DNA from: Prorocentrum cordatum
Taxonomy: Eukaryota
Assembly (NCBI GenBank): GCA_963575745.1
Contig: CAUYUJ010000277.1
Coordinates: 62,001-115,968 of the forward strand
DNA length: 53,968 nt
Direction of reading: 5' to 3'
Each line of letters opens with the position of its first letter. Within the stretch, counting starts at the first letter, position 1. Both the position numbers and the translations under genes were made by a program. This document shows positions 5,952 to 17,110 of the stretch, one piece after another. The notes beneath the pieces are model-generated. The model saw only the letters and a list, made by a program, of their open reading frames with translations. It did not search any database and had not been told where the DNA came from.

Positions 5952-8291
5952 AACATGTGACTCAAGATCAGCTTCTGATTCTTCGTGGATCGTAGACAGC
6001 CGTCCGTCATCATTTTCCGGCTTGGCTTCTGAAGCCTATCTAGCGGCCCCTCAGGTGGCGGCGCATCAGCCAAGTCCTCGAACTTTGACATATCCTGATC
6101 GAAGCCTGCCTGAGGCTTGATGGACGTCAGGCATTGGATGATTCGTGAGTGCTGATTGAGTTATACCATGTATGTTCAGAGCAGTACCTTCTGCTTCATA
6201 GTAATGGAATTCTGGATTCACGTCGTTATTGTAATGAACCAACGTGCAACTGTCAGCATAAGTAACCGGGGGTAGCTTATGAATACTCGTGGCTAATATG
6301 ACCGAAACAACGTTATCGATACGGAAGAAGTGTCTGATGAGATTTTGTAGGGCCAAGTGTACCTCTGGAGATAGTCGACTTGCCGTTGGCATATGAAGCG
6401 TACATTTCTTGGCCGGCACATAACCACATGTCAACGCAGGTCTCCCCGCTGAAAGGCTAGCTACGAATGTCAACATTGTGCGTAGTGCAGTGCTGTCGGA
6501 GCCAATCCCTCGGGCTATGAGTGCTTCAATGTAGAGCGAATGTCTTGCATCGCCGTATTGTACTTGAACATCTCGGTTGCCTACTCGGATGATGACCTGA
6601 CCCCTGCCTACTCGGATGATGACCTGACCCCTTTCAGGATCATTCTTCACAACTGGGAGCGGGCCATTCCAACCTCCCCAGTCATCTTTAGTAGTCGTAG
6701 GGCGATGGTAGTCAATCAAATCTCCTTCGTCATAATAATGCTGACCAGTAATGGTCGTCTTAGCGCGTAGTGCACGATTGGTCTTAGCTACTGCCGTGGC
6801 CTGTGTGATGGCCTCGAAGTACCAGACGAAGTCGGATGGCACGTTCCATATCACCCTTGTCGTGTTTAACGACTTTCCGTTTGTATACATATCTCGAAGT
6901 CATGATGTCCGACGCTCTGGCGATCTCCTGCAGTTTGAAGCATTTATCGTCGAACCCTGCCTTGACTTCGGTGAAAAGGGCCTTCGATATTTTCTCGGGA
7001 TTCGCCTGGATGTCAACCTTAGTGAAGACGTCGTCTTCCTTGACGACCACAGCTCGCTTTGCAGCGGCAGCAACATATACTCGCATGGTGGTCACCCGGT
7101 CGGCGTCCGACAGCATTTGTTGCTGCTCGGACAAGACGGCCTTTGACATCTCCGTTGCGAAGCAGAGTTCAACGTATGGACCGCTTTCGTCAGAGTCGAG
7201 TCAACAGCTGTCGTCTTCGACCAGGGTGCACAAGGGAGCGAAGTACGCTTCCCCAGTATCAGGATCATGAGTGCGCCCCCACTTCGGCAGGTGCCCCCGC
7301 TGCTCATCAGCCACAGTGACCAACACACTCTGGTCAGGAACCATATGTGTGGATACAGTAAAGAGTTCTTCTAGTGGGACTGCCTCCAGCAATTCCCTTT
7401 CCTCTCGCAACTCTGCGTACCATACCTCCATAACATGTGACTCAAGATCAGCTTCTGATTCTTCGTAAATCGTAGACAGCCGTACATCATCATCTTCTGG
7501 TTCGGCTTCTGAATCCTCTCTAGCAGCTCCCTCAGGTGGCGGCGCATCAGCCAAGTCCTCGAACTTTGACATGTCCTGATCGAAGCCTGCCTGAGGCTTG
7601 ATGGACGTCAGGCATTGGATGATTCGTGAGTGCTGGTTGAGTTATATCATGTATGTTCAGAGCAGTACCTTCTGCTTCATAGTAATGGAATTCTGGATTC
7701 ACGTCGTTATTGTAATGAACCAACGTGCAACTGTCAGCATAAGTAACCGGGGGTAGCTTATGAATACTCGTGGCTAATATGACCGAAACAACGTTCTCGA
7801 TACGGAAGAAGTTGCTGATGAGATGTTGCAGGGCCAAGTGTACATTTGGAGATAGGCGGCTTGCCGTTGTCATCTGAAGCGCACATTTCTTGGTCGCCAC
7901 ATAGCCAAATGTCAACGCAGGTCTCCCCGCTGAAAGGCTAGCTACGAACGCCAACATTGTGCGTAGTGCAGTGTTGTCGGAGCCAATCTCTCGAGCTATG
8001 AGTGCTTCAGTGTAGAGCGACTGTCTTGCATCGCCGTGTTGGACTTGAACATCTCGGTTGCCTACTCGGATGATGACCTGACCCCTGCCTACTCGGACGA
8101 TGACCTGACCCATTGCATGATCATTCTTCACAACTGGGAACGGGCCATTCCAACCTCCCCAGTCACCTTTAGTAGTCGTAGGGCGATGGTAGTCAACCAA
8201 ATCTCCTTCGTCATGATAATGCTGACCTGTAATGGTCGTCTTAGTGCGTAGTGCACGATTGTTCTTAGCTACTGCCGTGGCCTGTGTGATC
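5331..8291. repeat. 1.48-kb tandem duplication inside the Copia pol (units ~5331-6810 and ~6811-8291)
   Basis: gcctcgaagtaccagacgaagtcggatggc starts at both 5331 and 6811; ctgccgtggcctgtgtgat ends both units; duplicated peptides (QATAVAK, VYVAAAAKRAVVVKEDD). Confidence 0.95.
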
Positions 8292-8375
8292 GCCTTAATG
8301 CGTACCCTGCGTATTGTCTGTTCACGAGAATGATCTGCTTGTTCTGTCGACTGCTCGTGGTCCAGAACAGGGAGG

Positions 8376-14022: not shown

Positions 14023-17000
14023 TCACCAGCTTCGAATCGAATAGGTCAGAAAGGCGGCAGCTGCATCGATGCATCCATCCATAGCTGGACTGCTCGCAGG
14101 TCTCCCTGCTGCATTGTGGTTAGCAGGTTGCCCTGCGCGGCTCAGCATTCTGTTGGCCTGACGATATTGCTGTCGGCGCTGCCGCGTGGCCTGCATGGCC
14201 AAGTTGGCTTGCTGCGCCTCGTGCATGGCCAGGATCTCAGGGCGCATCTCGCCCATGGTCGGTGGCAGCACTGGGCCTGGAGCCTGCTGCTGTACATCTC
14301 GATCCATGGAGGGTACCAAATACCCAAAGTGAAGTATCTGTCCTGGCACACCTGATGCATATCCTGAACCACGTGTCAGCTGAGACCATTAGAAATCGTC
14401 GGCCGTCGACCGAACATATGGGTTCTCAGGCAGTGTTCCCACCCGAGCAGTTCCACTCACCTGCGCATGATAATCAGGAAAGAGTGGATGATCCATTGGC
14501 ACTGCCGTTGGCCGATCAGCAGCTATTGGATCGCAAGTCGGGTGGCTGAAGAATGCTGGTACATAACCAAACCGATTGGGGTTGTCCGGAGAAGGATTTG
14601 GATCCGGAACCTACTCCCACGGGGGCGTCCAGTTGGCACTAGGGAGGTCTATGCCATCCCTCCGCATGCTCTGGGCGGCCTCCCGCATCTGACGGTACGT
14701 CCATTCCTGCTGACCAACTAAACTTCTCTGTCTGGCATATTGGTCTGGGAAAGCAGGTTGCCCCGCAGTTGCACGTGGTGATGCGAACGGCGTTGTTGCC
14801 TGTAGAGCCTGATAGAGCTGCGGATCCCCACGAATACTTTGGAGCCTCGCCTGCAAGCTGTTGGCGCTCCCAGTACTCTGTGGGGTGCCAAATGGTGTAG
14901 TAGCTCTGCTCATAAGGGGCAAACGAAGCAGGTTGCCCTGCAGGTACTGGCAGCTGTTGAACCTGGGCACGCCACGGATCATTAGCGTATAGCGTATCAG
15001 TAGGCATAATACCACTTGGCGTAATACCCGTCACATCAGCGTCCTGAGCCTGCGCATCCATGATCCATCAGATCCCCCTGCAGGTGTCCCACACTTGAAG
15101 TTGTAGGGGGTATCTGTAGAGGAAGGAAGAAGGAGAAGAAGAAGAAAGAAAGTGGTTTAGAAAAAGTATTAATTTTTAATATATAAATATATATATATAT
15201 ATATACATATATATATATATATATATATTATATATTAAAATAATATATACATATATATAAATGATATATATAAATTATATATATATATAAATATATAAAA
15301 TGATATATATATATATATAAATAATATATATATATAAATGATATATATATATATATATATATATATTATATATATATATATATATATATATTTTTTTAAA
15401 AAAAAAAAAAAAAAAAAAAAAAAAAAAAAAAAAAAAAAAAAAAAAAAAAAAAAAACTGATGATACGTCATTGCGAACCTCGTACATCTCATCTATTCTAG
15501 TACTCGTGTACTGCTGGCTGTCGCCCTTCAAATATAAGGGATTTATCCATGTGTCCCACACGATTGCACTGACAATTGCAACCTGGCAAGATCCCGATCA
15601 ACTGGACGATGTGAGTAGGAGGGATCCTGCCATGACGGCCTGCTGTCATGACGATTTCGTTCGCCCAACGCCGCACTGGGATATTGTCCCGAATCAAGTA
15701 TGACCAGGACCTCAGAATCCATGCGTAAACCAGATTGGACTCTACTGTCACCAGGAAATTATGGGCATCCATGCACAAATTGCCTGCCCCTCCTCTTAAT
15801 GGTGTCGTCGGCGCGACAAGATATACCAATACTAAACATATTATGTATTTTCTCCCATTGAGTACCATGGGATTCTGGGCACCTGATGCCAGGGCTGCTA
15901 TGTCCGCTGGACGGGCGGATGAAGTAGGTGTCGTAAGTCATATCAGAAGACCTCATATTTTGGATATGCAGCCTATTCTTTTTCATTCCGGACTCATCTA
16001 TCATGCCGATGAGCTCCAAGACAGCATAGGCCTGATACGCCCCGTGACGATTCTTTAGCAAACGATGTACCGCGTCGAGATGCTTATGCTGGTGGTGTTC
16101 GAATCCTTCTGCGGGCCAGGCGTTGAGAAGCTGCGACAAATCGGCGCAACCGTCGTACTCGTCATAGGACGTAACTTCACGAATGAATATGTCTTACAAT
16201 TGACCATGATGAAATGGTTTGTGCTGGAGGGCTGTTGTCAGCCACTCAGATATCTCACGTTTTTCTCTATGGTCGAGCTTCGGCCTGTGAAGATTTTCCG
16301 CGACGAGGGCATTATTCAAATATTCCTTTTCTAAATCCAACGCGAGGGCAGCGCGTTTCCGCAGAATGTTGCGCACTGGCTGGCGCGCGAGTGCACCCTC
16401 GACAGAATGGACAGCAGTGCCCATGATGTTGTACTGCACAAGCATGTAGCCATCAGATCCATCATCACTTCGCGGATCATATGCTGGATTGATCTTCATG
16501 CGGTTGCCTGAGCGCATGCTGTCCCAGTGTTCCTTGCATTCCGGTGGCGCCTCCAGCGCAAGGGCAGGTTGCCCCGCTGGACCGCCAGCAGGTTGCCCCA
16601 CAGAACGTGGGGGAGCCTTTGGCGCTGGCGCTACAAACGTTGCTGCGCCCGCAGCTGATGAAGATGCACCAGCGGAACCTCTGGGCGTCCTTGGAGTTCC
16701 TTGCGGGGTACTGATGTCGAAGTCCTGGTGTTTCTTCTCCTTGGTGGTGTAGGCCTCGATATCTTTGTCCCTGGACACTGCCCCCGGTACCTCTGGTGCA
16801 GTAGCCAGGAGCTTCTCAGTACGCCTCGTGAAAGATGCATCCTTTGTTCCTGCCTCCAAAGTAGGCATCCATCCTGACGTGCGTGTCCGACCAGATGAAG
16901 GGCCGCGACGTGGAACAGGATCCTTCGGGGTAGGCTTCCTGGTGCCCTGCAATCTGGCTGCTGCAGCAGCCACTGCTGGACCTCTAGATCGTTGTCGATC

Positions 17001-17110
17001 GGCATGTTGCTCAGCAGGTTGCCCTGCATATGTTTTGATGTCCCCAGGATTAGGATCATCGCCTGAGCTCTTACGCGTCTTCTTCTTGGGCCTGGGATGA
17101 TAAGCGCCAT
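14023..17110 (-). pseudogene. Fragmented N-terminal (gag-position) ORF of the Copia element, no recognisable domain
   Basis: Collinear minus-strand ORF fragments from ATG at 17110; they carry the same GCRGG-GNNA-CCTGC hairpin as the pol region. Confidence 0.5.
15121..15455. repeat. Low-complexity block (GAA-rich, (AT)n, poly-A) interrupting the Copia element
   Basis: Direct reading; may be a sequencing or assembly artefact. Confidence 0.85.

Follow-up and report, generated by a model that had tools for sequence, protein, structure and literature searches.

The 53,968-base stretch of Prorocentrum cordatum contig CAUYUJ010000277.1 analysed here, hereafter the window, holds a degenerate Copia-like retroelement on its minus strand (3800..17200), and the question that this locus raises is why one short, dyad-symmetric sequence has been written many times into the coding region of that element, as a peptide motif, as a protein-binding site in DNA or as a hairpin in RNA. 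Our answer, to which we assign a probability of about 0.9, is that the copies are sense-strand hairpins under nucleotide-level selection, with a G(GNNA)C tip and lineage-specific stems, the window motif being one lineage's version. The hairpins have a G-C closed stem of 5-7 bp and a G-N-N-A loop, mostly G-N-R-A, and there are ~9 to 25 per element, located mostly in inter-domain linkers and just past the stop codon, positions at which the protein tolerates them.

The pattern GCAGGTNNCCCYGC has 16 matches in the window, all on the plus strand, against 0.01 expected, and none of 100 shuffled sequences reaches 16. These 16 copies of GCRGGGNNACCTGC are confined, on a single strand, to the one ~13 kb minus-strand Copia-like element, at plus-strand positions 6436, 7287, 7917, 9242, 11293, 11882, 12084, 12714, 13469, 13583, 14096, 14123, 14753, 14928, 16564 and 17014. 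The initial annotation had counted 15; all of its coordinates are correct and only 7287 had been overlooked. The sense strand of the motif is the minus strand of the window, on which it reads GCRGG-GNNA-CCTGC, with the loops GCAA (six copies), GAGA (three), GAAA (two), GACA (two), GGAA, GAUA and GGCA. Freeing the third stem pair in the search adds three copies in the same stretch, at 5807, 9128 and 16576, and neither the strict nor the third-pair-free pattern has a copy outside 5807-17027 in the 54 kb window. The restriction of the motif to the element, proposed earlier, therefore holds, the variants that had been reported at 9128 and 16588 are both present, and the copies at 6436 and 7917, previously described as duplicates, do sit, together with the pair 5807/7287, in a 1.49 kb tandem duplication (5327-6814 and 6806-8295, 93% identical). 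A covariance model built from 33 copies gives 26 window matches at E up to 0.5, all on the minus strand and within 3809-17031. Rfam 15, at its gathering score, has no match in the window or in the related loci L001 and L002 described below.

An A-G-x-P-A reading is possible for 15 of the 16 strict copies, 11 of which lie within listed open reading frames (ORFs). At 11293 the AGKPA frame is set by homology to L001 and to the related protein P0017, the longest ORF there being in the wrong frame, and at 11882, 14928 and 14753 the frame is found in overlapping ORFs. The copy at 7287 and its duplicate at 5807 are read as Q-R-G-H-L-P, in a different frame that runs without a break into the reverse transcriptase (RT) ORF. 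Four of the five stem pairs follow automatically from the Ala-Gly...Pro-Ala codons, so that the stem by itself is no proof. GGG accounts, however, for only 22% of the glycine codons of the element, CCT for 32% of the proline codons and A for 23% of third positions, yet GCR-GGG-NNA-CCT is used at 15 of the 17 identified A-G-x-P-A sites (13 in listed ORFs, 11 of them strict, plus 11293, 11882, 14928 and 14753), with 9128 and 16576 as the exceptions. With codon usage unbiased, the fixed GGG, NNA and CCT point to constraint at the nucleotide level, and the initial annotation was correct in describing an A-G-x-P-A motif with fixed synonymous positions. Only 3 of the 14 positions vary among 16 copies with unrelated flanks, a pattern that descent without selection does not explain.

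In 150 representative related proteins (31,384 residues) there are 63 occurrences of AGxPA, in which x is Q (18), A (13), T (12), P (7), K (5), E (3), R (2), S (1), N (1) or G (1). Q, K or E occupies this position in 26 of the 63 and H, N or D in one, an excess that fits a last loop base needing to be a purine. At site 12714, AGxPA is present in 9 of the 13 aligned relatives with at least 48% identity (10 of 22 rows overall), with x being T, Q, Q, K, K, A, G, A and E in the nine, and at site 12084 in 8 of 11 aligned relatives; at these two sites, the two examined, it is missing from all but one relative near 35% identity. Short tandem duplication has multiplied some copies, with AGQPAxxS present three times in P0018 and TSVAGxPAPS twice in P0017. 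The copy at 7917 arose by substitution, as relatives read AGKLPE or SGKTPE there; an origin by insertion was rejected for this site, which has no indel relative to the relatives, and is possible at 11293 and 9128, where the relatives are shorter. Interpretations of the motif as a splice site, a restriction site, an E-box or a product of CpG avoidance, considered by eye, were also rejected, as they fit some copies only (GCG, for example, is present in 7 of 16).

Five related DNA loci were available for comparison: three of them, L001 to L003, came from metagenome contigs and the other two, L004 and L005, from a collection of genome contigs; no relatives were found on scanning viral contigs. L002 is intact (8.2 kb, with two same-frame ORFs parted by a TAG at 1545-1547), as is L005 (9.9 kb, with two long ORFs that span the entire polyprotein), and L001 is a dead copy, interrupted in frame by two TGA codons. 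A generalised pattern, GC..GG..AC..GC, with the tip and the two outer pairs fixed and pairs 3 and 4 free, has 20 sense and no antisense matches in the window element (shuffle mean 0.07), 9 and none in L002 (0.07), 4 and 2 in L001 (0.02), 2 and none in L004, and none in L005; outside the element (1-3799 and 17201-48000) there are none on either strand, with shuffle means of 0.04 and 0.15. L005 has its own version, GRTCCCG-GNNA-CAGGATC (5′ arm G[AG]TCCCG), with nine sense and no antisense copies. The stems are then GCRGG/CCUGC in the window, GCRNG/CNYGC in L002 and L004, and GRUCCCG/CAGGAUC in L005, and each lineage has homogenised its own. The nine L002 copies, mostly GCAYG-GAAA-CRCGC, are distributed over phase 0 (one), phase 1 (two), phase 2 (four) and the 3′ untranslated region (UTR; two), where they begin 11 nt past the stop codon. 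Seven of the nine L005 copies read (G/D)-P-G-x-R-I and two are in the other two frames. Linkers that carry hairpins in several lineages are those before the protease, before the integrase-like region, before the RT and between RT and RNase H.

A lineage-blind count, in which the tip G-GNNA-C had to be accompanied by pairing at four or more of the next five positions, gives 28 sense and 1 antisense hairpins in the window element (shuffle mean 4.05), 10 and 3 in L002 (2.08), 13 and 3 in L005 (2.64), 3 and 0 in L004 (0.78), and 6 and 3 in L001 (1.71). The unrelated RVT_1 retroelement at 21830-27463, which serves as an internal control, has no such enrichment (3 sense, 2 antisense, shuffle mean 2.64). 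In the 44 listed copies the G-N-N-A loop is imposed by the search patterns; the third loop position is a purine in 35 of them (window 14/20, L001 3/4, L002 9/9, L004 2/2, L005 7/9).

Pairing was counted in 33 copies chosen regardless of pairs 3 and 4, of which 32 are distinct and which are partly non-independent, as they include tandem duplicates in the window and L002 and homologous window and L001 sites. Pair 4 is paired in all 32 distinct copies and is of five types (GC 19, AU 4, CG 4, UG 3, UA 2); pair 3 is paired in 25 (AU 11, GU 10, GC 4). The covariation score is 0.338 versus 0.144 in shuffles, with 0 of 500 shuffles reaching 0.338, the base-pair covariation expected for the stem of a GNRA-type tetraloop hairpin. 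Changes at matching sites agree with this. Window 7287 (caG CGG GGG CAC CTG Ccg) and L002 5765 (caG CAC GGA AAC GAG Cta) occupy the same codons of the pre-RT linker, and between them (GCGGG..CCTGC versus GCACG-GAAA-CGAGC, Q-H-G-N-E-L) pair 4 has changed from G-C to C-G via two amino-acid changes. L004 1999 (GCGCG..CGTGC) and L002 5684 (GCATG..CGTGC) differ by two transitions, with both pairs kept through wobble. G.U or U.G is present in 13 of the 64 variable cells and would read C.A on the opposite strand, and in the window's element, L002, L004 and L005 the antisense strand never shows the G..A asymmetry of the loop; together, the wobble pairs and the one-sided loop argue for a single-stranded sense molecule, RNA or plus-strand DNA. 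The free energy of an isolated hairpin is -7 to -8 kcal/mol, and folding predicted in 134-nt contexts gives a stem probability above 0.5 for 22 of the 33 hairpins in the sense orientation versus 13 of 33 in antisense. With other stems, copies in all three frames and in the 3′ UTR, compensatory changes and a sense-strand bias, the relatives bear out the suggestion of the initial annotation that selection acts on nucleotides in a sense-RNA hairpin. Synonymous variation that breaks the pairing was not found; the changes GGG to GGT and AAA to AAG in L001 alter the loop and leave the stem intact.

Several observations weigh against selected sense-strand hairpins or against the packaging role proposed below. 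The sample of relatives is five DNA loci, two of them from one assembly labelled bacterial. Pair 3 is unpaired in 7 of the 32 distinct copies, in six of these as A.C, and all six are in L002, whose hairpins fold slightly better in antisense in silico because the A.C at pair 3 becomes G.U there. L005 has an invariant C.A adjoining the closing pair, two adjacent copies in L001 score better in antisense, with UAAC as the sense loop, and for 11 of the 33 hairpins the prediction is that other local structures win out. No Gag or zinc-knuckle domain is recognisable by Pfam in the element and the packaging determinants described for Ty1 and Ty3 are placed near the 5′ end and are not dispersed (PMC4974528).

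Five other explanations have to be set against these sense-strand hairpins and against the role that we favour for them, and three of the five concern what kind of molecule the repeats belong to. A protein-level A-G-x-P-A linker or protease-site motif, with identical codons left by recent copying, would account for the A-G-x-P-A frame of 15 of the 16 strict copies within linkers, for the positional conservation of AGxPA among protein relatives, for the local tandem spread of some copies in P0018 and P0017 and for the AGKPA that L001 retains through synonymous changes. Neutral descent cannot, however, give 16 copies that vary at 3 of 14 positions within unrelated flanks, copies are present in other frames and in UTRs, and the peptides that go with the same hairpin architecture in L002 and L005 are quite unlike A-G-x-P-A. 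A protein short linear motif keeps to a single frame with free synonymous codons; here the codons are fixed and the frames are not. This explanation, to which we give almost no credence, is largely refuted, and the A-G-x-P-A peptide is a by-product of the stem of the window lineage. The initial annotation had left the choice between a dispersed RNA signal and a protein-binding site in DNA, and the sense-RNA hairpin is the one favoured, the DNA site being disfavoured by the covariation, the G.U pairs and the one-strand asymmetry of the loop. Binding of a dimeric protein to a palindrome in double-stranded DNA would be consistent with the dyad symmetry of the arms and with copies in both orientations in L001, but it is highly improbable: a sequence-reading protein would not tolerate stems that change while complementarity is kept, G.T wobbles occupy 13 cells, the asymmetric G..A spacer is one-stranded in four of the five hairpin loci (window, L002, L004 and L005; not L001), and A-G-x-P-A would be encoded equally by both orientations, yet one strand is used. 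Strand bias and G.T wobbles fit equally well if the hairpins act during reverse transcription, in the RNA or in plus-strand DNA, which is of the same sense, as sites of pausing, strand transfer or internal plus-strand priming. Purines often predominate in the 5′ arm and loop taken together (GCGGGGAGA, GCAGGGAAA), and internal priming might speed the copying of elements as long as these (8 to 13 kb). However, neither GCAA, the loop found most often, nor the 5′ arm of L005 (GRTCCC) is a purine tract, the real polypurine tract is not locatable because no long terminal repeat (LTR) was found, and we consider such a function distinctly improbable.

For hairpins that are RNA, the issue is what reads them. 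Sites read by a factor co-evolving with the element would be expected to combine, as these do, sense polarity and many copies with a tip that is constant and a stem that is lineage-specific. By analogy with viral systems, and somewhat short of even odds, we tentatively suggest that the hairpins are recognition sites for an element-encoded RNA-binding protein, the most economical candidate, that selects or packages the genomic RNA. The hairpins would form in the full-length RNA and provide multivalent, family-specific sites for such a protein, possibly a Gag-like N-terminal product or the zinc-finger region, so that particles would be assembled with the element's own genomic RNA; contact would be made at the invariant tip, and the lineage-specific stem would allow co-resident families to be told apart. 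The hairpins could instead be read by a host factor, for nuclear export or retention of the unspliced transcript, for protection from decay or nonsense-mediated decay, or for suppression of splicing. Copies right after the polyprotein stop in L002 (7708 and 7746, each within a longer stem) and ~70 nt past the last ORF in the window (3813) are suitably placed, and a G(GNNA)C tip that is constant across lineages is expected of one conserved reader; but a common factor needs no lineage-specific homogenised stems, the second retroelement of the window is without the hairpins and no known export or stability element was matched in Rfam, and we think a host reader unlikely. An improbable alternative is that the methyltransferase-like domain encoded by the element (9733-10713) docks on the hairpins or uses them as substrates, in which case it might mark the RNA or the same-sense cDNA at a dozen or more G(GNNA)C tips, a self-marking system just as improbable. 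The hairpin-bearing relatives L001, L002 and L005 all carry the domain, it is far better conserved than the linkers, one language-model neighbour cluster in the ESM Atlas bears the name 'DNA (cytosine-5-)-methyltransferase family protein' (score 0.96) and the tip is the constant part of the hairpin, closed by an invariant C. On the other side, the domain has no Pfam match to C5 cytosine methyltransferase (PF00145; 14 members, E up to 5) and no match among PDB sequences, its AlphaFold model, with a predicted local distance difference test score (pLDDT) of 46, is too poor to support a methyltransferase identity, and its methyltransferase motifs were recognised by eye only. If self-marking did occur, the transcript would bear a chemical label peculiar to its family, which would control its packaging or protect it against silencing by the host.

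Recognition by an element-encoded protein, the role that we prefer, would act through sites spread over almost the whole element, all of them on the minus strand. From the 5′ end of the sense RNA, these begin with the strict copy GCAGG-GCAA-CCTGC (A-G-Q-P-A) at 17014..17027, followed by a run of three in which the strict copy GCGGG-GCAA-CCTGC (AGQPA, 16564..16577) is joined by the variants GCTGG-CGGT-CCAGC, which encodes AGGPA via other codons and keeps the 5-bp stem (16576..16589), and GTGGGGCAACCTGC, which encodes VGQPA (16588..16601); the three tandem AGQPAxxS units of P0018 are at the place of this run. The strict copies GCAGG-GCAA-CCTGC (14928..14941) and GCGGG-GCAA-CCTGC (14753..14766) have their AGxPA frame in an overlapping ORF. 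Next are GCAGG-GCAA-CCTGC (AGQPA, 14123..14136), GCAGG-GAGA-CCTGC (AGRPA, 14096..14109), GCGGG-GATA-CCTGC (AGIPA, 13583..13596), GCAGG-GACA-CCTGC (AGTPA, 13469..13482), GCGGG-GGAA-CCTGC (AGEPA, 12714..12727) and GCAGG-GACA-CCTGC (AGTPA, 12084..12097), all strict. The strict AGKPA copies GCGGG-GAAA-CCTGC (11882..11895) and GCAGG-GAAA-CCTGC (11293..11306) are homologous to GCGGG-TAAC-CCTGC at L001 718 and GCAGG-TAAG-CCTGC at L001 1342, respectively. GCGCG-GCAG-CGTGC (10814..10827) has its homologue at L001 1824 (GCGTG-GCAA-CGCGC), the wobble changes keeping the stem, and a decayed copy, GCAGG-GCAG-CTTGC (AGQLA, 10508..10521), is the homologue of a strict copy at L001 2077. GCAAG-GGTA-CTTGC (10042..10055), within the conserved methyltransferase-like domain, is in another codon phase (S-K-G-T-C) and is homologous to L001 2543 (GCAAG-GCAA-CTTGC), a non-AGxPA hairpin common to both elements.

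Further downstream, the linker that precedes the integrase-like region has the strict copy GCAGG-GCAA-CCTGC (AGQPA, 9242..9255). The third-pair-free search added GCAGG-GAAC-CCTGC (AGNPA, 9128..9141), and the generalised pattern added GCGTG-GTAA-CGCGC, in another codon phase (S-V-V-T-R, 9039..9052). GCGGG-GAGA-CCTGC (AGRPA, 7917..7930) is strict, and GCGGG-GGCA-CCTGC, outside the AGxPA frame, is in the linker preceding the RT (7287..7300); their counterparts in the tandem duplication are at 6436..6449 and, as GCGGG-GACA-CCCGC with G.U changed to G-C, at 5807..5820. Within the RT there is a weak candidate, GCACG-GCAG-CGTGC (5241..5254; 14 bits, E 0.41), and the RT-RNase H linker, in which L005 also has a hairpin, contains GCGGG-GCAAA-CCTGC, with a loop one base longer (4377..4391). 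The last is GCGAG-GCAA-CTCGC, found with the generalised pattern in the 3′ untranslated sequence ~70 nt past the end of the last ORF (3813..3826). In L002, the two 3′ UTR hairpins are each inside a longer imperfect stem (7701-7726 and 7739-7764), with TGAGT...ACTCA flanking the 14-nt core, and form a 38-nt tandem pair.

The element that holds all of these hairpins was recognised by its RVT_2 and RING matches and by colinearity with the intact relatives L002 and L005. It has decayed through frameshifts, an internal tandem duplication and a low-complexity insertion near 15150-15600. This block of TA-rich repeats with a long homopolymer run parts the N-terminal ORFs of the element from one another and is probably a secondary insertion or expansion. 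An RVT_2 reverse transcriptase (PF07727) is present at 4539-6035 on the minus strand (40.1 bits versus a cut-off of 31.6), with scores of just 18-19 bits, under the cut-off, in P0017 and L002. The minus strand also encodes a RING finger (13632-14045). No LTR pair was found in the window, no repeat pair links the two ends of the element, and Pfam gives no match to an integrase upstream of the RT, where a D,D,E-like region was recognised by eye only. The label 'Copia' given in the initial annotation is thus supported by the RVT_2 match, but this is a single match, without an LTR pair or a Pfam integrase. The N-terminal ORF, at 16194..17159 (minus strand), has an Arg-rich segment (ADRQRSRGPAVAAAAAR) that is conserved in the alignment with relatives, and we infer from this that its product is a candidate RNA-binding partner of the hairpins. 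Directly upstream of this first ORF, a unit of ~48 nt is present at 17141-17188 and again at 17474-17522, 333 nt apart; a perfect inverted repeat of 11 bp (CCGGCGGTAAA / TTTACCGCCGG, 12 nt spacing) lies within the copy at 17474-17507, with a counterpart arm at 17141-17151, and the repeated unit may be a leader structure.

The methyltransferase-like domain (9733..10713, minus strand) is a conserved domain of ~250 aa, with no function assigned, that is common to all the relatives. It sits between the protease region and the zinc-finger/integrase region and contains ELCGGxGGISQLAF, LQPNCRTTG, EDLPHIKFCG and REQPVGTW. If the domain is indeed a methyltransferase, the element would be a Copia-like one that has captured such an enzyme. 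Identity with a dinoflagellate retrotransposon bearing a DNA methyltransferase (DNMT) was considered and rejected: the paper on DNMT-bearing retrotransposons gives the Symbiodinium Copia elements as without a DNMT domain (PMC5890265), and the closest proteins to the host element carry the source label Pyramimonas sp. Among the related loci, the L004 and L005 contigs are within an assembly labelled as a bacterial metagenome-assembled genome, and their presence in this bin is almost certainly eukaryotic contamination. In both intact relatives, L002 and L005, a single stop codon parts the RING/protease ORF from the long downstream ORF, an arrangement that suggests read-through or frameshift expression of the downstream enzymes; in L005, a TGA followed by a frame change is present at 3732-3744, near a masked N run.

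Beyond the Copia-like element, the second retroelement of the window (21830-27463, minus strand) is apparently intact, with two contiguous long ORFs (1260 and 616 aa) and an RVT_1-type reverse transcriptase. Arrays of a ~177 bp satellite (units 75-84% matching), broken by other sequence, extend over 17550-48300, and the Copia-like element adjoins the first array. Of the window ends (48800-53968 and 1-3800), one carries long microsatellites rich in CA, (CA)n and (CACAGACA)n, whose strand skew is extreme, and the opposite end is GC-rich (58-62%).

To our knowledge, how LTR retrotransposons choose their own RNA from among cellular and rival transcripts is poorly understood beyond yeast Ty1 and Ty3, and the hairpins provide a candidate cis-signal, recognisable from sequence alone, that is multi-copy, strand-specific, covarying and rewritten in each lineage around a constant tip. 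They also exemplify a nucleic-acid signal that shapes protein sequence, the A-G-x-P-A, (G/D)-P-G-x-R-I and x-G-N-x peptides being by-products of the hairpins, and annotators should be cautious in treating such polyprotein peptide 'motifs' as protein features. In shape only, the hairpins resemble boxB of phages lambda and P22, which has a 5-bp stem and a GNRA-like loop in ~15 nt and is read by the short arginine-rich N peptide; the N-terminal ORF of the element likewise has its conserved Arg-rich stretch, but boxB is present once or twice per operon and functions in antitermination. The stem-loops of satellite tobacco necrosis virus (STNV) share the loop motif A.X.X.A. STNV, phage MS2 and coronaviruses are described as having, like the element, many degenerate stem-loops that share a loop motif along the genome and are lineage-specific in sequence (PMC6475782, PMC8206606), lineage-specific repetitive structural motifs being described for coronaviruses (PMC8206606). 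Those are experimentally supported capsid-binding sites of true viruses, whereas the hairpins here are known from the sequence of a cellular retroelement, in which the motif is far less degenerate, with 11-16 fixed bases. Ty1 and Ty3 also have cis-acting RNA structures that are recognised by Gag, a feature of these LTR retrotransposons, but these have been described as domains at the 5′ terminus (PMC4974528, PMC5454406) and not tetraloop hairpins repeated through the ORF. A full-text search, mainly of the open literature, gave no earlier description of repeated tetraloop hairpins in LTR-retrotransposon coding sequence. The likeness to alphaviruses (the Sindbis and Venezuelan equine encephalitis virus group) is in a series of short stem-loops within coding sequence that have a fixed G-rich tip: their packaging signals are eight stem-loops in the nsP1 coding sequence, each with GGG at the tip, and both number and structure matter for selective packaging (PMC5869531); the window copies all have GGG at the 5′ edge of the loop. 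The alphavirus loops, a packaging signal, are clustered in ~360 nt of an RNA virus, whereas the hairpins read from the sequence here have the tip G(GNNA)C and are spread over a retrotransposon of 8-13 kb. Several stem-loops with a shared tip on one, the sense, strand, as in repeated viral packaging stem-loops, are nevertheless present, and repeated stem-loops resembling the cis-acting ones of viral genomes are found here in a retrotransposon family.

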